From assembly GCA_019358915.1 (NCBI GenBank), contig JAHHIM010000036.1:352001-416000 (forward strand): a stretch of DNA of 64,000 nt. The letters are read 5' to 3'. The DNA is from Trichormus sp. ATA11-4-KO1 (GTDB taxonomy: Bacteria; Cyanobacteriota; Cyanobacteriia; Cyanobacteriales; Nostocaceae). Made by a program: the position numbers and the translations under genes. The notes below the pieces were generated by a model that ran no database searches, was not told the DNA's origin, and worked only from the letters and a program-made list of their open reading frames with translations. The stretch's first letter is position 1. Each line of letters begins with the position of its first letter. Positions 431 to 59,031 of this stretch are shown here, piece by piece.

Positions 431-1207
431 TTAATCTTCTGTCACACCCATGAGGTGCTTTAACAAGCCCAGCCCTTTTTTCACCCTACGGGAAACTGTA
501 ACTACACTAATCCCTAAGTGTTCAGCTACTTGTTTTTGGGTCAAGTCTTGCAAAAATACACATTCCAACACTTCACGAGTACATTTCTCTAGCTGAAACA
601 ATGCTTGTTGTAGGCGCATTTGGTCTTCTTGTGCCAGTTGAAAGCTGCGGTAATGAGGATCTGGAACCAATTCCCCTAGGCTGGTAGCTCCTTCTTCTCC
701 GTCCAGAATTGGGACATCCAAGCTCAGAGGGGCGCGATTGACCCATGCTAATTTAATTTCTTGCCATTCGTTTGGCGAAATCGCCAATGCTGTGGCTAAT
801 TCAGAGTCAGTAGGTTGACGGTTATATTTTTCGCGCAAAGAACGTGACACTCCTATTGCCTGCTGTTGCAGTGCCAAATAGCGCCGAGGAATTCGCACTG
901 TGACACCTTTATCTCGGAGGTAATGTTGAATTTCACCACGAATATAGGGAATAGCAAAAGAACTGAAAGCGTGCCCTTTGGAAATTTCAAATTTTTCAAT
1001 AGCCCTTATTAAACCCAAACAACCTACTTGGAGCAAGTCATCATAGCTTTCACGGCATTGATTTATCCAATAGTGAGCTTCTTTTCTGACCAGTCCAAAG
1101 TTAAGTTTTACCAGTTTATTACGAACAGTTTCTGAACGAGATTGTTGATATTCCCGCAATAACTGCCAAATTTCATGCTTCAGTTCGTTAGTGGCTGTAG
1201 TAGGCAT
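431..1207 (-). CDS. sigF: Group 3 RNA polymerase sigma factor (SigF/SigB type)
   Basis: Region 2 motif DLLQVGCLGLIRAIEKF...FSSFAIPYIRGEIQHYLRD and region 4 HTH LTQKQVAEHLGISVVTVSR; lies next to psbO as in Nostoc/Anabaena. Confidence 0.85.
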   Translation of the reverse strand: MPTTATNELKHEIWQLLREYQQSRSETVRNKLVKLNFGLVRKEAHYWINQCRESYDDLLQVGCLGLIRAIEKFEISKGHAFSSFAIPYIRGEIQHYLRDKGVTVRIPRRYLALQQQAIGVSRSLREKYNRQPTDSELATALAISPNEWQEIKLAWVNRAPLSLDVPILDGEEGATSLGELVPDPHYRSFQLAQEDQMRLQQALFQLEKCTREVLECVFLQDLTQKQVAEHLGISVVTVSRRVKKGLGLLKHLMGVTED

Positions 1208-1726
1208 AGCACCGCGTTTATTTAGTAAATAAACAGTGAATACCCGCTTAAAAAAAAGCTACAATTGTCCGATATTCCAGCAAAAAATTGGCTATCTTTT
1301 TTATCAAAATATATGATAAATAACAATTTGTGCTGCGCATCACCTTATATGTTTGACAATCGAGCAAAATTCAAATAAGCGAAATTGGTATTTTGTTTGG
1401 TCTTTAAAATTGTTGTCTATATGTAGTTTTGAAAGCTACATATAGACAACATATAAAATTATTTATTTAATTTCAAACCGAAATTTTACTTAATTTGATT
1501 ACTTAAATATGCCATCTAATAGCTAAAATTTTGCTAAATACTCAAAATTTTGTTCTCCGTAAAACTACTATAGTTATTCAATAAAATTTAATTTTATTCA
1601 GTAACTGAGTGTCAAGAAATATCTTCATTAAGGTATTGAGTACAGGAGTACAGCTGAGTTAATCAACACCGTCCTAACCTGTGTGACTTTGGCTATAAAT
1701 TTGTGTTCATTTGGTCGTAAATTAGT

Positions 1727-1765
1727 AAAAAACCCATTTGCTCTCAAAACAAGGAGCAAATGGGT
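1727..1765 (-). terminator. Rho-independent terminator of psbO
   Basis: 12-bp stem ACCCATTTGCTC...GAGCAAATGGGT followed by a U-tract on the minus strand. Confidence 0.65.
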
Positions 1766-1839
1766 GAAATCAGGCGATGAAGTTGATGATTACAAAACCA
1801 TATTCTTGAGTATTAACCAGTTGTCATACTCAAAAGGAT

Positions 1840-2673
1840 TTAGCCACGATTTGGTTCAACCCGTGCATAAAACAGGCCTCGAATCTTGACTTCCTTGGGT
1901 TCGCCAGCACCCAAATCAGTATCAGATGGTTGTTCGCTCTCGAAAGTACCAGCAATTTCACCACTAGAGCTATCTACTTTGGCTACTTGCAGAGAAATCG
2001 TGCCATCAAGAGTGTCAACACGTTTGACGTTAGCGCGTGTGAGTTCTTCGTCATCGGCTTGGGCAGGGAGAGCCACAGCATTATCATAGCCAGTGACGAC
2101 ACCACGACCTTTGGGATCTAGGAAGGCAGCACCACGATAGGAAGGAACCTTAAAAGTACCTTCAAAGTCCGTGGAAGTGTTGATGCTGGTCAAACCAGGT
2201 TGTGTTTGAGCAACTAAATCTTTGATGGTGAAGAGAAAAGGTACTGATTCACCACCAGGGAGTTTGACAGTGATGGCTTGGAAGTCAAGACCATCAGCTT
2301 CTACAAAGGTCAGGCTATTATCTGGGTTGATTTTCAGGTCGCCTTGTACCTGATCAATGGTAGAAGTGTATCTGGTCAATAATTTTCCAGGCACAAATTC
2401 TGCTGTTTGTCGTTTATTAGCAGGTTCTTCTTTCACAAAGAAAGTCGTTGGTTCCAAGCAGAGTTCTTTAATGGTGTAGGACTGGCTGGAATCAATGGGA
2501 ATAGAACCACGGCTGGTTTCTGCTAGTTGGGGGCATGAGTTAGCCAAACCAGTGCCTCGAATTTGTTCGTAAGTAAGTAAATCTTTGCCAGTAGAAGCTG
2601 GAGCTTCACTGCAAGCAGTTAATAGCCCCAGACACATAGCCAAGAATGCAACAATTAAAGCGCGATACCTCAT
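1840..2673 (-). CDS. psbO: Photosystem II manganese-stabilising protein PsbO
   Basis: MRYRALIVAFLA signal peptide; GTGLANSCP, VPSYRGAAFLDPKGRG and FESEQPSDTDLGA motifs. ATG 2673 preferred over the upstream TTG. Confidence 0.97.
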   Translation of the reverse strand: MRYRALIVAFLAMCLGLLTACSEAPASTGKDLLTYEQIRGTGLANSCPQLAETSRGSIPIDSSQSYTIKELCLEPTTFFVKEEPANKRQTAEFVPGKLLTRYTSTIDQVQGDLKINPDNSLTFVEADGLDFQAITVKLPGGESVPFLFTIKDLVAQTQPGLTSINTSTDFEGTFKVPSYRGAAFLDPKGRGVVTGYDNAVALPAQADDEELTRANVKRVDTLDGTISLQVAKVDSSSGEIAGTFESEQPSDTDLGAGEPKEVKIRGLFYARVEPNRG

Positions 2674-6396: not shown

Positions 6397-7680
6397 ATGA
6401 CACTTGATAACAACCAAGGGCTTACCTATAAAAATTCCCAATCTGTGGGACAGCCGGGGTTTCCACTGGCAGTTAACTCAACTAATCCCTTTAATAACTC
6501 TGGTCTGAACTTTGGACAAAACCATGACAGTAAAAAGATATCCACGGAAAATAGCCGGATTGGCGAAATTGTTCCTGGTCGGGTTGCCAACATTAAAGTG
6601 ATTGGTGTGGGTGGTGGTGGAGGAAATGCGGTTAACCGCATGATTGAGTCCGATGTTTCAGGAGTGGAGTTTTGGTCAATTAACACTGATGCGCAAGCTT
6701 TGACACTGGCAGGCGCTCCTAGTCGGTTACAAATTGGACAAAAGCTAACGCGCGGTTTAGGAGCAGGTGGTAATCCTGCTATTGGTCAAAAGGCAGCTGA
6801 GGAATCACGGGACGAAATTGCTACGGCTTTAGAAGGTGCTGACCTAGTGTTTATCACTGCCGGCATGGGAGGCGGTACTGGGACAGGTGCAGCCCCAATT
6901 GTTGCGGAAGTAGCAAAAGAAATGGGTGCTCTCACTGTGGGTGTGGTAACACGTCCATTTGTCTTTGAGGGACGCCGCCGCACTAGCCAAGCGGAGCAAG
7001 GTATTGAAGGGTTAAAAAGTAGGGTAGATACGTTGATTATTATCCCTAATAACAAGTTGCTGGAAGTGATTCCTGAGCAAACCCCTGTACAAGAAGCTTT
7101 TCGCTATGCAGATGATGTGCTGCGTCAAGGGGTACAAGGAATTTCTGATATCATCACGATCCCAGGCTTGGTAAACGTTGACTTTGCCGATGTCAGAGCT
7201 GTGATGGCAGATGCGGGATCGGCACTGATGGGGATTGGTGTCAGTTCAGGAAAATCAAGAGCGAGAGAAGCGGCGATCGCGGCTATTTCTTCACCATTAT
7301 TAGAATGTTCTATTGAAGGAGCTAGAGGAGTTGTCTTTAATATTACTGGTGGTAGCGACCTCACTCTGCATGAAGTGAATGCTGCCGCAGAAGCCATATA
7401 TGAAGTAGTTGATCCCAACGCTAATATTATTTTCGGCGCAGTAATTGATGACAGACTCCAAGGTGAGGTGAGAATTACTGTAATTGCCACTGGGTTTACA
7501 GGTGAAATACAAGCAGCACCACCACAAAATGTGGCTAATACCAGGGGAGCACCTCCCCCAAAACGGCCAACAGGACAGCAACCAACAGTTAATCCTCCCA
7601 CACCAGTTGCTGAACCCAAAGAAAAATCGGGATTAGATATCCCTGACTTTCTGCGAAATCGGCGGACACCACGGAATTAA
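6397..7680 (+). CDS. ftsZ: Cell division GTPase FtsZ
   Basis: [26 protein letters not shown] tubulin signature, C-terminal LDIPDFLR. Confidence 0.99.
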
Positions 7681-54359: not shown

Positions 54360-54603
54360 CGCCTGATTTTACAGCGTGCGGTTACGCTAAGGAAGCTTAA
54401 CGCGATGTGTAATTTTTCTCAAGTAACCGGTTTTACCAAGGTTTGAGCGCAATCGGACTCCAGTTTCTCTAGATAATACTGCTCAAGCTCGATTGCGCGG
54501 TGACTATGCTGTAAATTAGTAAATAAACATAACAAAGAGCTATATATTGTTGAGGGAAGAGATGGACAAGCGATTGATCCTTCTGGCAATCCTCTTCTAC
54601 TTG

Positions 54604-54900
54604 ATTAATATTGATAAGCTTGAAGAAATAACTGGATATGATTTCCTATCTAATCTTCCCTCTGAAATTCAAGAGGCAATTGAAGGGCGAAAATACCCTG
54701 ATATTCTAGAAGAAATTTATAATAAACGGCTTATGTGAGTTGGAGTCTGGAAAGTCGTAAATACGGCAATATGGTTAAACACCTTGGCCAAACCACAGCC
54801 TGAAACCCTTGCCATAGCTTGGGCGTTTTTAATTCACATAAGGCGTAATAAGGAAATTAAGATTAGACCCAGGTCTGCTTCTTTAATGGCTTCAACGACC
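54604..54900 (+). pseudogene. C-terminal tail fragment of a NucA-like endonuclease module, split by a MITE
   Basis: INIDKLEEITGYDFLSNLPSEIQEAIE; removing 54726-54846 plus one TSD restores ...EEIYNKEIKIRPRSASLMAST in frame. Confidence 0.75.
54726..54846. mobile_element. 121-bp MITE
   Basis: TIRs ACGGCTTATGTGAGTT / AATTCACATAAGGCGT (14/16 match); 5-bp direct repeat AATAA at 54721-54725 and 54847-54851. Confidence 0.8.
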
Positions 54901-54901
54901 G

Positions 54902-57229
54902 GGGATTGCAGGAAGAGAAGGAGTAACTTTTAAAACTATAAGTTCAAAAGTTAGCGTTCCTGAAAGTATTTGGAAGGTTGTACTATTTCTAGATCGTCCT
55001 GGTCAAGGAATTTCCGACGTAACTAAAGATACCCTCGCTTTTGGTATTTATTTATCCAACACCCTTGATGTAAATGGTAAAGGGCAAGATCCTAATGACG
55101 ATTGGAAACAAAACTTTACACTTGATGGAAAGACATTTGGACTATTTAATGTTGAAGAACTTGAAAAGCTAACTGGGTATAATTTCCTGTCTAATATTCC
55201 CACAGAAATTCAGGAAGCAATTGAGAATCGAGATGTTAATGATATTTTGACAAAACTCAATGTCATTAAACCTCCGTCACTTATGGCTGCAACTGAAGAT
55301 GAACTAAAAATCTCCGAAAAAGGGACCGCTTTTGATAGTGCCATCGGGCATAGTAGTCTGGTAAACAAAATTCCCATAACTCCAAATAATGTTTGGAGCG
55401 ATGTAAGCATCTCTGAAGTTAGTTTTAATCAGAATAGCGAACTCAAAACTACTGATGTTAGCTCCACAGAAGGTAGCACGACTAGCGTTCATATGATTCA
55501 GGTCGGTTCCTCCCAAATCGGCTTCAGTCAAATCACACCAACTCAAGTTGGCGGAATACAAATTAGCATCCCTGACAATAGCGCGTTTCAACCAAGCGCT
55601 TTCCAAGGAAACACCAAACAAATCGGCTCCAGTCAAATCGGCTCGACACAGATCGGCTTGTCTCAAATAGGCTCCGCGCAAGTTGATATCTCTCAAAATA
55701 GCGCCTTCGAGGTCAATCGAACTGTCGAGGGGAACACCCTCAGATTGAATCAACTCAATCCCTCGAAAATCGCGCTCTCCATCAGCATACCGAGCCAACA
55801 ACTCCTCAGCAGTTATTTCCCAAGCCATGAATTAACCTCCAATTTCTTTTCCAATCTTAAATATAGTGTTAATAATATTTGGGGAGATTTACTCACATCG
55901 GAAACGCCCACCTTAAACATCTCCTTCCAAATCACCAACCTCCCCACCGGACAACTAGCCGAAGCCCAACTAACCCAATTCGACCCCCAAGGTCGCCCCA
56001 ACGGAGGCACAATCCTCATCGACCACGACGCTAACGGCTACTCGTGGTTTATCGACCCCACCCCGCTTGACAACAGCGAATTCACCACCTCCCTCACCGA
56101 CACAACCTACCGCGCCACCACAGGCGACGCATTCGGCAAATACGACCTGCTCACCACCATCCTCCACGAAACCGGACACCTACTAGGTATAATCTCCGGT
56201 AACCCAGGCTTCGACCGCTACATCCAAACCATCAACAGCACCAAAACCTTCATCGGCGATAACTTCACTGCCACCCTCACCCCAGACGGTAGCCACCTTG
56301 ACTCCCAGGTACACCCCTACGACCTGATGAATAACACCCTGTCCCCAGGCCTGCGTAAGCTACCATCATGGCTCAACCTGCAAATGATTAACGCCATCCG
56401 TAACACTACGGTAGCGCCAAGCAGTACAACACAACTAACAGCACCACTAACAGCAATCCTGCTTGCAGACATCACCAACGGCAACTTCAACTTTAGCGAC
56501 ACAACCAAACCCGAATACGGCTGGACAACCCGTGGTGCAGCCACCATCCTCAACCCCACAACCCTGTCCATTCAAACCAACCCCACCAACAGTACAATCC
56601 AACTAACCCCAGATGGCACAGTCACATACACCCCTAACCCCACCTTTGTCGGCATAGACACCTACACCTACACCATCACCGACACAGAAGGCTTAACATC
56701 TAATACTGCCACCGTCAACAATATAGCCCCAGTGATCACAGTAATTACAGGCGACACCACCACCACCGAAGGCACAACAGCCAACTTTAGTGCCACAGCA
56801 GTTGACCCTGGTGACGAACTTACCTACCTCTGGAACTTTGGCGACGGTTCACAACTGGTCGAAGGTGAAAACGTCACCCACACCTACACCGACAACGGCA
56901 CATACATCGCCACCCTGACTGTTATCGATAGTCTTGGCGTCAATAGCTTCCAAACCCTAGAAATCACCGTCAATCATGTCGCGCCTCGAGAAATTACCAA
57001 ACTCAAATTCGAGCAAAAACTACTCCATCTCAGAGTTTACGAAAATTCCCAACTAGTAGAACATGTTAAAGGCAGACAAAATCAACCAGTATCACCCCTA
57101 GCCTTTGACAGAATCCAAATACTCGCCCTCAACAACAATGGCCAATCCCAGATATTTGATGACATTACCTTCCATGATAGTGGAGAAGGTATTGGCACTA
57201 TAGAGATTCCAGTAACGCCACTGGGGTGA
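54902..57229 (+). pseudogene. 5'-truncated, internally condensed large exoprotein: NucA-like endonuclease half, antisense-pentapeptide linker, HExxH zinc-protease domain, Ig/cadherin-like and PKD domains
   Basis: Frame open from 54887 (no ATG/GTG/TTG before TTG 55247): VSVPESIWKVVLFLDRPGQG...LEKLTGYNFLSNIPTEIQEAIE; later WFIDPTP, YDLLTTILHETGHLLG, TYTPNPTFVGIDTYTY and YLWNFGDG...HTYTDNG. Confidence 0.75.
55304..55828 (-). CDS. Pentapeptide-repeat protein, nested antisense inside the + frame
   Basis: N-cap EELLARYADGERDF, A(D/N)LxxA repeats, C-cap TTMPDGTI; ATG at 55828 with GGAGG at 55836-55840. Confidence 0.88.
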   Translation of the reverse strand: MAWEITAEELLARYADGERDFRGIELIQSEGVPLDSSIDLEGAILRDINLRGAYLRQADLCRADLTGADLFGVSLESAWLKRAIVRDANLYSANLSWCDLTEADLGGTDLNHMNASRATFCGANISSFEFAILIKTNFRDAYIAPNIIWSYGNFVYQTTMPDGTIKSGPFFGDF

Positions 57230-57315
57230 GTTCCCATAGCACGTTCAATATCTTCTGGACGATTGCGTCCACCTCGAACAACTAATGCTTCATCGGGTAT
57301 TTTCTTTAAGGTCAC
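57200..57315 (-). pseudogene. N-terminal fragment of a small hypothetical gene fused head-on to the exoprotein relic
   Basis: MTLKKIPDEALVVRGGRNRPEDIERAMGTHPSGVTGIS looks protein-like, then continues as antisense of the + frame from about 57200. Confidence 0.45.
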
Positions 57316-57393
57316 TGGAGGGATGCATATATTTGTTGTAATTAACTGTAATTTATCTAGTAAATATTAAAAAACTTTTGAAAAACTAAAATT

Positions 57394-59031
57394 ATGAAAA
57401 TGAAGTACTTATTTCTAGTTTGGGTGCTTGTACTCTCATTAGTCATTCCCAGCGAGGCACTTGCCCAAACCAAACAGCCTGATAATTTAATACCTGGACT
57501 CGGCACACATCACCATGCTGTTGCTACCCGTAATCCAGAAGCACAGAAGTTTTTCGATCAAGGACTAAATTTAATTTACGCTTTCAACCATGATGAAGCA
57601 GTACGTTCTTTTCAACATGCTGCCGAACTTGATCCCCAAATGGCAATGGCATATTGGGGGATGGCTCTGGGTATAGGCGCAAATATCAACTTAGATATAG
57701 ACCCTGAACGAGAACAAGTCGCCTATCAAGCCATACAAAAAGCTTTGGCACTTTCCCCCCAAGCACCAGTCCCAGAACAAGACTACATCGCTGCCTTAGC
57801 AAAACGTTACTCTAACGAACCAGATGCAGATTTGCATCAATTAGCGGTGGACTACGCCAAAGCAATGGGGAACTTAGTCAAGCGCTATCCAGATGATTTA
57901 GATGCGGCTACATTGTATGCCGAAAGCTTGATGGATTTGCATCCTTGGCAACTCTGGAGTAAAGATGGCAAACCCCTGGGAGATACTGAAGAGATTGTTA
58001 CTGTTTTAGAATCAGTTCTCCGACGTGATCCCCACCATCCGGGAGCGAATCATTATTATATTCATGCAGTGGAAGCATCGCCGCACCCAGAACGTGCCCT
58101 TGAGAGTGCTAAACGACTAGAAACCTTAGTTCCCGCAGCCGGACATCTAGTACATATGCCTTCCCATATTTATTTTCGTTTGGGAGATTATGAAGGGGCG
58201 ATGCGGTCAAATCAGCAAGCGATCGCTCAAGATAATATCTATTTGCGTAATCATCAAGTCCAGGGCATTTATCCCCAGATGTACTATAACCACAACGTGC
58301 ATTTCTTGATGGTTGCCAGCAGTATGGCAGGTAGATATCAAGATGCCCTACAAGCTGCCGACAAGTTGGTAACAAATGCTGCTGCTATTGACCCATATTT
58401 ACCAATGCTTGAGGGATTCCTCGGTAACAAAATGCTGATTCAGGTAAGGTTTGGTGATTGGGATGCTATCTTAAAAACTCCTGCACCTGACGCTAAACTA
58501 CCCACTACTACTGCACTTTGGCATTTTGCTCGCGGTATGGCTCATGCAGCTAAGGGTAACTTAGAAGATGCAGCAAACGAAAGCCGTGCCTTACTAACAG
58601 CAACACAGACAATTCCTGACGATGCCACCATTGGTTTTACTCCTGCTAGTCGCATTTTAGACATTGCCATAAAATACCTGGATGCCAAAATTGCCAAATC
58701 CCAACATAATTACGATTCGGCAATTAAATTACTACAACAAGCAGTAGTAGCAGAAGATGCCCTTGATTATGTAGAACCACCAGATTGGTATTTTCCCACA
58801 CGGGAAGCATTGGGTGGTGTATTGCTAGCTCAAGGCGATTACGCAGCAGCCGAGAAAGTTTTTCGTGCCGATTTAGAAAAATATCCCCATAACGGACGTT
58901 CTTTATTTGGCTTACAGGCCAGTTTGCAAGCACAGCGCAAAGATAACGCGGCAAAACTTGTACAAACTGAATTTGCTACAGCATGGAAACATTCGGATAC
59001 TCAGCTACGAGTTGAAAATCTCAGAGATTAG
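57394..59031 (+). CDS. Secreted TPR-repeat protein
   Basis: Signal peptide; AQKFFDQGL..YAFNHDEA, HPGANHYYIH and GHLVHMPSHIY motifs. Confidence 0.85.
   Translation: MKMKYLFLVWVLVLSLVIPSEALAQTKQPDNLIPGLGTHHHAVATRNPEAQKFFDQGLNLIYAFNHDEAVRSFQHAAELDPQMAMAYWGMALGIGANINLDIDPEREQVAYQAIQKALALSPQAPVPEQDYIAALAKRYSNEPDADLHQLAVDYAKAMGNLVKRYPDDLDAATLYAESLMDLHPWQLWSKDGKPLGDTEEIVTVLESVLRRDPHHPGANHYYIHAVEASPHPERALESAKRLETLVPAAGHLVHMPSHIYFRLGDYEGAMRSNQQAIAQDNIYLRNHQVQGIYPQMYYNHNVHFLMVASSMAGRYQDALQAADKLVTNAAAIDPYLPMLEGFLGNKMLIQVRFGDWDAILKTPAPDAKLPTTTALWHFARGMAHAAKGNLEDAANESRALLTATQTIPDDATIGFTPASRILDIAIKYLDAKIAKSQHNYDSAIKLLQQAVVAEDALDYVEPPDWYFPTREALGGVLLAQGDYAAAEKVFRADLEKYPHNGRSLFGLQASLQAQRKDNAAKLVQTEFATAWKHSDTQLRVENLRD

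Follow-up and report, generated by a model that had tools for sequence, protein, structure and literature searches.

Can the two strands of one bacterial DNA segment encode two proteins codon against codon, and, if so, what is the second gene doing inside the frame of the first? This question is raised by a locus in a 64,000-nucleotide stretch of the Trichormus sp. ATA11-4-KO1 genome (contig JAHHIM010000036.1, positions 352,001 to 416,000). We call the whole analysed stretch the window, and its contig C36. At this locus, an intact gene for a pentapeptide-repeat protein (PRP) lies on the minus strand, entirely within a plus-strand frame that leads from a NucA-type nuclease domain into a protease-like module. 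When two bacterial coding frames overlap at length on opposite strands, the overlap is usually dismissed, and gene-calling programs leave it out. Judging from the comparative data reported below, however, the dual-coding architecture is not only real but also ancient and under selection, and it goes far beyond chance. As for its role, we think it probable that nuclease and PRP form a nuclease/inhibitor (toxin/antidote) cassette with a topology like that of nucA/nuiA, and that the window holds an orphan copy.

The Nested Gene and Its Host Frame

The ORFs (open reading frames) of the window include a plus frame at 54887–57229 of 780 codons without a stop. On the minus strand, the ORF at 55304–55828 encodes 174 amino acids plus a stop. 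The two are in exact antisense codon register, because the difference between 55304 and 54887 is divisible by 3. The nested protein was matched by Pfam Pentapeptide PF00805 (E = 4.4 × 10−23, 80.9 bits against a cutoff of 20.2, in three stretches); it matches pentapeptide families alone in Pfam, and not the NuiA family (PF07924). Upstream of it, the match to Endonuclease_NS is weak (E = 0.003) and covers profile positions 157–222 of 223, i.e., the last third. This nuclease part is 94% identical to residues 148–280 of the full nuclease domain of a second copy, on contig C41. Because it is 5′-truncated, it lacks the catalytic RGH..N..E region. For the protease-like module downstream there was no Pfam match at E ≤ 1.0 × 10−2, and the match to NCBIfam NF038122 was weak (1.5 × 10−4). 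A preliminary description of the locus, made from the letters alone, had reported the open frame, the intact PRP gene in exact register with its GGAGG motif, the C-terminal half of a nuclease upstream, and HETGH, Ig and PKD parts downstream. All of these were reproduced (Table 1).

We found two more copies with both frames open in the same genome, on contigs C41 and C65. The C41 copy is part of one continuous frame with 10,408 codons (1570–32793), for which the ATG at 1666 is the likely start. The domains of this giant frame include about 25 CARDB repeats, PA14, He_PIG, Big_9, an RHS repeat and a dockerin-like module. Close to its 3′ end, a complete Endonuclease_NS domain (5.5 × 10−34) is followed by the stretch antisense to the PRP gene, the HExxH module, Big_9 and PKD. 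The C65 copy is a scrap of 363 codons. The GGAGG, the ATG and the stop of the PRP ORF are kept in all three copies. Compared with C41, the window copy starts in the middle of the nuclease, misses about 180 residues before Big_9, and ends early; the C41 tail runs about 150 residues further. This alignment identifies the window plus frame as a duplicate of the giant gene's 3′ end that has been truncated and has undergone partial deletion. The host fragment in the window has no catalytic half of the nuclease and is probably a pseudogene, whereas its PRP gene is intact. The preliminary description had likewise noted a host gene that looks 5′-truncated and a nested gene that is intact.

The window and C41 copies form a mosaic of segments with nucleotide identities of 58–100%, and the host-frame ratio of nonsynonymous to synonymous differences per site (pN/pS) is 0.35–0.70. 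Over most of the PRP gene the identity is 100%, and over the last 40 codons or so (window 55304–55430) it is about 58%; the two PRPs are 82% identical. Such a pattern suggests that cassettes have recently undergone gene conversion or recombination with one another. We also noticed a matrixin-like HExxH motif, HEFGHILGLDH, near the N-terminus of the giant C41 protein (1666–2500), with a weak match to the C-terminal protease-like module.

Conservation of the Overlap

We searched 301 genomes of the family with one query that ran from the nuclease tail across the overlap into the protease head. Thirty loci were fetched, and then 17 further regions whose match was mainly in the protease part. Of the 30 loci, ten are found in very long frames (1312–11,175 codons); the PRP frame is open in 10/10 of them, over 154–303 codons, with PRP identities as low as 31%. 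A complete PRP ORF in exact antisense register was present in 16 of the 17 further regions. The exception, L062 (797–3537), has transposase-like ORFs (named by eye) exactly where the protease module starts, and it is the only one of the protease-module loci examined that has no PRP upstream. We also looked for another toxin or antidote in the same slot; L062 is no such alternative cassette, as the locus is cut by a transposase insertion at the protease start.

For 28 related loci, a PRP ORF of 127–318 amino acids in exact antisense register and a protease in frame were found in 28/28. The nuclease was in frame upstream in 23/28, and the other five loci are 5′-truncated fragments like that of the window. 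Both frames are open in all 28 loci, which come from three families of one order, so that the homologues do keep an antisense PRP ORF at this site, as the preliminary description had proposed to check. Purine-rich motifs resembling a Shine-Dalgarno sequence precede most of the homologous nested ATG or GTG starts, and a few of these motifs are weak.

Two other searches were run with baits that exclude the overlap (the PRP region). With the protease module as the only query against 401 genomes of the phylum, 8/8 matches covering at least 200 of the 246 residues had a PRP directly upstream, and the matches include two other families of the same order. With the nuclease profile against 151 genomes, 6/6 matches in frames of more than 1000 codons carried a nested PRP; the remaining matches were stand-alone frames of about 105–542 codons, mostly 270–460. 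Among the matches of these two kinds, no intact giant locus without a PRP was found. The intact arrangement is present in the public records of Nostoc sp. CHAB 5836 (NZ_JAIVFV010000036.1) and Plectonema radiosum NIES-515 (NZ_JAOWRF010000276.1), and in a Waterburya assembly.

Of the Endonuclease_NS catalytic residues, G83, H84 and E131 are shared by all 23 cassettes, and N106 by at least 90% of them. By these residues, the nuclease of the giant proteins looks active. Double-length, tandem-fused PRPs of 249–318 amino acids were detected in five loci (L042, L047, L050, L056 and L061). In L050, L056 and L061, a second N-cap motif (..ELL.RYA.GER.F..) appears mid-way, as if two inhibitor genes had been fused. 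The host frame of the double-PRP loci is open across the whole length.

Codon Use and Selection on the Two Frames

In this register, TTA, CTA and TCA are antisense-stop codons. The window PRP gene has 19 Leu and 12 Ser codons, and none of them is TTA, CTA or TCA; the approximate counts of the preliminary description were exact. In the long ORFs of the genome, TTA and CTA together make up 46.6% of the Leu codons and TCA makes up 17% of the Ser codons. From these shares, the probability that the window PRP gene avoids the three codons by chance is about 7 × 10−7. We then counted the three codons in the 29 PRP-like ORFs of the genome. Only the three nested-type copies have zero, whereas the other 26 have 4–70 (5.4–19.2 per 175 codons). 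Open antisense frames are therefore not a feature of free-standing, unrelated PRP genes, which had been raised as a possible objection when the locus was first described.

The three codons are absent from all 28 nested PRP copies, because the host frame is open across each of them. The giant gene itself contains 469 antisense-stop codons in 10,408 (7.9 per 175) and none across the PRP gene, for which the chance is about 3 × 10−4 per locus. The longest stretch in which it has no antisense stop coincides exactly with the PRP ORF (175 codons), ahead of a second-longest one of 132. The avoidance of TTA, CTA and TCA, together with nuclease and protease being in one frame, shows that the openness of the host frame is enforced by selection.

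The ratio of nonsynonymous to synonymous substitution rates (dN/dS) was estimated by the Nei-Gojobori method for nine nested copies, giving 36 pairs, many of them saturated (dS above 1). The PRP-frame dN/dS was 0.19–0.51 in 35/36 pairs, and the host-frame value over the PRP gene was 0.53–1.44; the former was below the latter in 35/36 pairs. The difference is also seen in the less diverged pairs, with 0.23 vs. 0.96 for window-L017, 0.19 vs. 1.44 for L025-L032, and 0.28 vs. 1.20 and 0.22 vs. 1.05 for two others. By these ratios, which the preliminary description had suggested estimating, the PRP frame is under purifying selection while nested, and the host frame over it is near neutral yet never closed. 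In our reading, the PRP gene is the sequence-constrained one and pays by the loss of three codons, while the giant protein reads its complement as a tolerated linker.

Predicted Folds of the Two Frames

Both frames of the same C41 DNA were modelled, each with a 20-row alignment. For the PRP frame, AlphaFold2 gave a pentapeptide beta-helix with a predicted local distance difference test score (pLDDT) of 93.6 and a predicted template modelling score (pTM) of 0.87. The model has the right-handed quadrilateral beta-helix fold. The Foldseek matches listed for it in the PDB are all PRPs, PRP-derived solenoids or the beta-helix domain of NleL, and the top ones include Np275/276, HetL, Qnr and MfpA. 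The nearest solved relatives of the window PRP are cyanobacterial (Np275/276, HetL and Alr5209). It did not reach the NCBIfam cutoffs of the DNA-mimic families (Qnr, 28.3 of 240 bits; MfpA, 27.3 of 360; QnrB, 31.9 of 460). The best family, the Alr5209 type, was also below its cutoff (105.2 vs. 125).

The host frame over the PRP gene of C41 had a pLDDT of 40.4 and no secondary structure. The idea that its ‘SQIG’ repeat forms a beta-helix of its own was rejected on this model. The stretch is probably a disordered linker whose sole constraint is to stay open. Because it is nearly neutral and does not fold in silico, we regard the host frame as read through as a linker. A complex prediction for the C41 nuclease domain with the PRP, each with an alignment, returned no answer (score 0.00, mark 0.32) and counts for neither side.

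Joint Variation of Nuclease and PRP

We compared pairwise identities among 23 loci and found that those of nuclease and PRP were correlated (r = 0.70, a value reached in 0/2000 permutations). The correlations with the adjacent protease module were −0.05 for the nuclease and 0.05 for the PRP. The mean pairwise identity was 0.37 for the nuclease, 0.36 for the PRP and 0.67 for the protease; across loci, the protease identity stays at 57–86%, and nuclease and PRP drop to about 30%. Along the host protein, the identity steps from 0.2–0.3 to 0.6–0.78 exactly at the PRP start. The co-variation and the identity step indicate that nuclease and PRP behave as one exchangeable cassette.

The PRP gene is also found without its host. 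Stand-alone PRP genes that lack an intact host gene occur in 19/30 fetched loci, where the frame in host register is 10–283 codons long. They are 50–93% identical to the PRP of the window and have 0–3 TTA, CTA or TCA codons, far under unrelated PRPs; thus, they look recently released from nesting. In another genome of the family, L084 (5965–9702) has five intact PRP genes in tandem on one strand. Four of these PRPs are 98%, 84%, 73% and 64% identical to the PRP of a different nested cassette, and the fifth is weakly similar (36%). Scraps of nuclease tails and protease heads are interspersed on the other strand. In the same genome, no giant gene was found with the query of nuclease tail, overlap and protease head. 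The tandem array has the pattern of orphan-immunity arrays. With such an array of five, and with decayed host frames around stand-alone PRPs being common, the claim in the preliminary description that the pair is genetically inseparable did not hold.

Comparison with Known Systems

NucA is a secreted, sugar-non-specific nuclease of Anabaena-Nostoc, and NuiA is its intracellular inhibitor. The full-length relatives of the window locus share with this pair an Endonuclease_NS nuclease with the RGH..N..E residues and a small acidic protein encoded directly downstream on the opposite strand, i.e., convergently. However, the putative inhibitor here is a PRP and not a member of the NuiA family (PF07924), the nuclease is a domain within a protein of about 10,000 residues, and the gene of the putative inhibitor lies inside the frame of the nuclease gene, which reads through it. 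A canonical pair was found on contig C13 (L008) of the same genome: a NucA-like secreted nuclease of 281 amino acids (949–1794, plus strand), with a NuiA of 133 amino acids (PF07924, 2.3 × 10−56) convergent and downstream of it (2074–2475, minus strand). The genome therefore holds the classical pair plus the giant-gene/PRP version. The preliminary description had called the architecture unlike NucA/NuiA. This is correct for the nesting and for the family of the small protein, but not for the convergent topology, which is the same.

Polymorphic toxins with Tox-NucA domains, as portrayed in the consulted part of Zhang et al. 2012 (PMC3482391), are likewise huge, repeat-rich proteins with a hypervariable nuclease domain (identity 0.37 in our loci). 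In that account they are also accompanied by a small adjacent gene that co-diversifies with the toxin, and stand-alone or arrayed copies of it occur with toxin scraps. Their immunity gene is downstream on the same strand, whereas our candidate is on the opposite strand, fully nested, just after the nuclease domain. PRPs are unmentioned in that part of the source, and cyanobacteria are not in the spread that it gives for Tox-NucA.

The DNA-mimic PRPs MfpA, Qnr, AlbG and McbG have a quadrilateral beta-helix that is right-handed and bears an acidic surface, according to the relevant part of PMC8145042. They resemble the nested PRPs in this, and putatively also in giving protection from the activity of a DNA-directed enzyme. 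Unlike them, the window PRP is far below their NCBIfam cutoffs, and the proposed target is a nuclease and not gyrase. PRPs adjoining a beta-beta-alpha-Me (His-Me finger) nuclease domain, with a suggested immunity role, have precedents: YjbI-like PRP genes stand beside GH-E Rhs toxins in an excerpt of PMC5714182, and a PRP is annotated as the antitoxin of a type VII secretion system (T7SS) toxin in the accessible portion of bioRxiv 10.64898/2026.07.13.738213. In those portions, these are separate neighbouring genes in proteobacteria and actinobacteria, and none is nested antisense. In the open-access papers and bioRxiv, we found neither an antisense-nested PRP nor a PRP inhibiting a NucA-type nuclease.

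Antisense overlapping genes are reportedly present at pop/ompA of Escherichia coli O157. In phage methylase genes, the ShiLan ‘hidden HNH’ insertions are embedded genes around which the host frame remains open (PMC11855218). Both cases and ours have a complete second gene within a stop-free host ORF. They differ in that our inner gene is no selfish endonuclease, the two frames overlap antisense and in exact register, the overlap is kept over three families of one order with comparative evidence of selection on both frames, and the inner gene appears to be functionally tied to a neighbouring domain of its host. The present finding joins two known kinds of arrangement, toxin-immunity cassettes and antisense overlapping genes.

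Role of the Nested Gene

How can the arrangement be explained? The cassette usually sits near the 3′ end of a cyanobacterial exoprotein gene of about 10,000 codons. In the cytoplasm of the producer, the acidic beta-helical PRP would bind and block the nuclease domain, as NuiA does with NucA; DNA mimicry, which MfpA and Qnr use toward gyrase, may be the means. The cassette co-variation, the nuiA-like position and the orphan arrays are the basis on which we infer such an inhibition. The inhibitor may be nested because the nuclease is internal and the conserved C-terminal modules must stay attached. A need for these modules in export or processing is our suggested cause of both the internal nuclease and the embedded antidote. 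The exact antisense register would be the single overlap that both genes can hold open by synonymous codon choice alone. The PRP genes outlive the decay of the host gene, and the stand-alone copies may act as orphan immunity. More tentatively, the codon-for-codon embedding may be an evolved design by which an internal toxin domain of a giant secreted protein is swapped with its antidote as a unit of recombination, with this PRP clade being DNA-mimic inhibitors of NucA-type nucleases; we regard this wider proposal as possible rather than probable.

Several observations weigh against a nuclease/inhibitor cassette, or weaken the evidence for it. The co-variation of nuclease and PRP could reflect just the positions of recombination breakpoints, and it is partly driven by one clade of similar cassettes. 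The nested PRPs are acidic in 20/20 cases examined (isoelectric point, pI, 4.05–5.33). However, a pI of at most 5.45 is also found in 15/22 PRP-like ORFs of up to 320 amino acids in the genome, three of which are of the nested type; since most PRPs of the genome are acidic, the charge is weak evidence. In the dN/dS analysis, the exceptional pair was window-C41, which is mosaic, with a PRP-frame value of 0.71. The N-terminus of the giant C41 protein was judged by eye and is not hydrophobic, so there is no obvious signal peptide. A promoter scan of 54400–57500 found no minus-strand site upstream of the PRP gene. The nuclease domain of classical polymorphic toxins is C-terminal, whereas here it is internal and followed by the protease-like module (identity 0.67), Big_9 and PKD. 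Finally, the immunity families given for Tox-NucA in the consulted part of PMC3482391 are Imm36, SUKH and NTF2, and not PRPs.

In the same scan of 54400–57500, six promoter-like sites were found against 5.3 expected from shuffles, and no terminators were found. By eye, most loci share a TATAT-like motif about 30–40 nucleotides ahead of the PRP ATG; since a conserved Tyr codon of the host falls on the same place, the motif is inseparable from protein constraint. A promoter of the PRP gene would have to sit in the first codons of the protease-like module.

The strongest competitor of the inhibitor explanation is that the nested PRP is real and selected, yet serves something else: it may regulate the giant gene by antisense RNA or convergent transcription, it may help the giant protein to fold or to be exported, or it may protect from something else, for instance the adjacent protease or a topoisomerase poison. 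Conservation, selection and codon evidence show that the PRP matters, but not what it binds, and the conserved protease-coding part holds both its start and its presumed promoter. In the portion of PMC8145042 consulted, the roles of PRPs are diverse or unknown. We nevertheless consider this explanation rather unlikely, since PRP identities follow those of the nuclease (r = 0.70) and not those of the protease (0.05), and since the PRP gene stands to the nuclease as nuiA stands to nucA. In addition, one would not expect a gene that regulates or chaperones the giant gene to survive as stand-alone copies or tandem arrays after the loss of the host. Should one of the two frames not be a gene at all, the PRP ORF would be a relic or by-product of the host ‘SQIG’ repeat, or the giant frame would be untranslated there. 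Such mimicry is conceivable, because the reverse complement of A(D/N)LXX codons reads as a five-residue repeat, xQ(I/V)(G/S)x. The explanation as a whole is very improbable and close to refuted by the rest of the evidence. The PRP has an N-cap and a C-cap that are not part of the repeat, its ATG or GTG and its stop are at homologous positions and usually accompanied by an SD-like (Shine-Dalgarno-like) motif, and its predicted fold is confident. Its dN/dS is the lower one in nearly all pairs (35/36), and stand-alone PRPs are intact where the host frame is broken. The giant frame, in turn, is supported by the nuclease and protease that share it and by the absence of TTA, CTA and TCA from 28 nested copies, against 4–70 in unrelated PRPs.

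The PRP gene could also be a hitch-hiking or selfish insertion in a tolerant linker, with no functional tie to the host, like the homing-endonuclease genes hidden in phage genes. This would agree with a host that reads through about 175 near-neutral, non-folding residues. However, we know of no mobility function of PRPs, flanking inverted repeats were not found beyond short weak matches, and the position is constant over three families. The PRP also diversifies along with the nuclease, and no intact giant locus free of the PRP was found (8/8 protease-module and 6/6 long-frame nuclease matches carry the PRP). We consider a selfish insertion improbable, although selfish HNH elements do provide known cases of embedded genes whose host frame is open (PMC11855218). 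An invertible element, in which the flipped PRP gene would be in frame with the host, was also considered and dropped; the only inverted repeats were short and weak (13–18 nucleotides, 78–86% complementary).

Significance

From comparative data alone, an antisense overlap of 127–318 codons is seen to be maintained over three cyanobacterial families, with a clear signature for each frame. If the wider proposal above is true, the overlap would be among the best-supported long antisense dual-coding regions of any cellular genome. Annotation pipelines are likely to miss the nested PRP genes, or they may split the giant genes wrongly. For one clade of PRPs, most of which are without known role, the analysis offers a testable function, i.e., nuclease inhibition; if it is true, it would be the first biochemical role for part of the large cyanobacterial PRP expansion. 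The layouts of toxin-immunity systems would be extended to internal cassettes with an embedded antidote. The locus is also a natural system of two genes sharing codons, where the cost to one falls on codon choice and the cost to the other on freedom of sequence.

Features of the Locus and Minor Observations

The coordinates of the features are summarized in Table 1.

Table 1. Features at the nested locus, in window positions.
Feature	Position	Strand	Basis or remarks
Scraps of a second, different nuclease cassette	54504..54717	+	Pieces like nuclease residues 123–156 and the C-terminal tail
C-terminal half of NucA-type (Endonuclease_NS) nuclease domain, host frame	54887..55303	+	Pfam; paralogue alignment
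Intact PRP gene, 174 aa (amino acids), candidate nuclease inhibitor/immunity protein	55304..55828	−	ATG 55828–55826; stop TAG 55306–55304
Host-frame read-through of the PRP gene, Ser/Gln/Ile/Gly-rich, 175 codons	55304..55828	+	Joins nuclease and protease modules
Shine-Dalgarno GGAGG (plus-strand CCTCC)	55836..55840	−	7 nucleotides ahead of the PRP ATG; within host codons for ..LTS..
HExxH metalloprotease-like module, HETGH at 56166–56180	55829..56566	+	Weak NCBIfam NF038122; conserved 3′ flank of the cassette
Partial Big_9 + PKD domain	56561..56971	+	Pfam Big_9 5.3 × 10−8, PKD_4 3 × 10−22
End of the host fragment: C-terminal tail (shortened, divergent) with stop	56972..57229	+	C41 alignment

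The scraps of the second cassette were compared with the C41 nuclease by tblastn, which gave 85% identity over 54504–54605 and 50% over 54580–54717. A separate match placed the same tail fragment at 54586–54717. No PRP follows these scraps at 54504–54717.

The preliminary description had mentioned an in-register ORF antisense to ftsZ (7125–7619, minus strand) as an example of a chance overlap. This ORF is present, with 164 amino acids and a TTG start, and has the look of a low-complexity sequence complementary to a gene rich in Gly and Ala.

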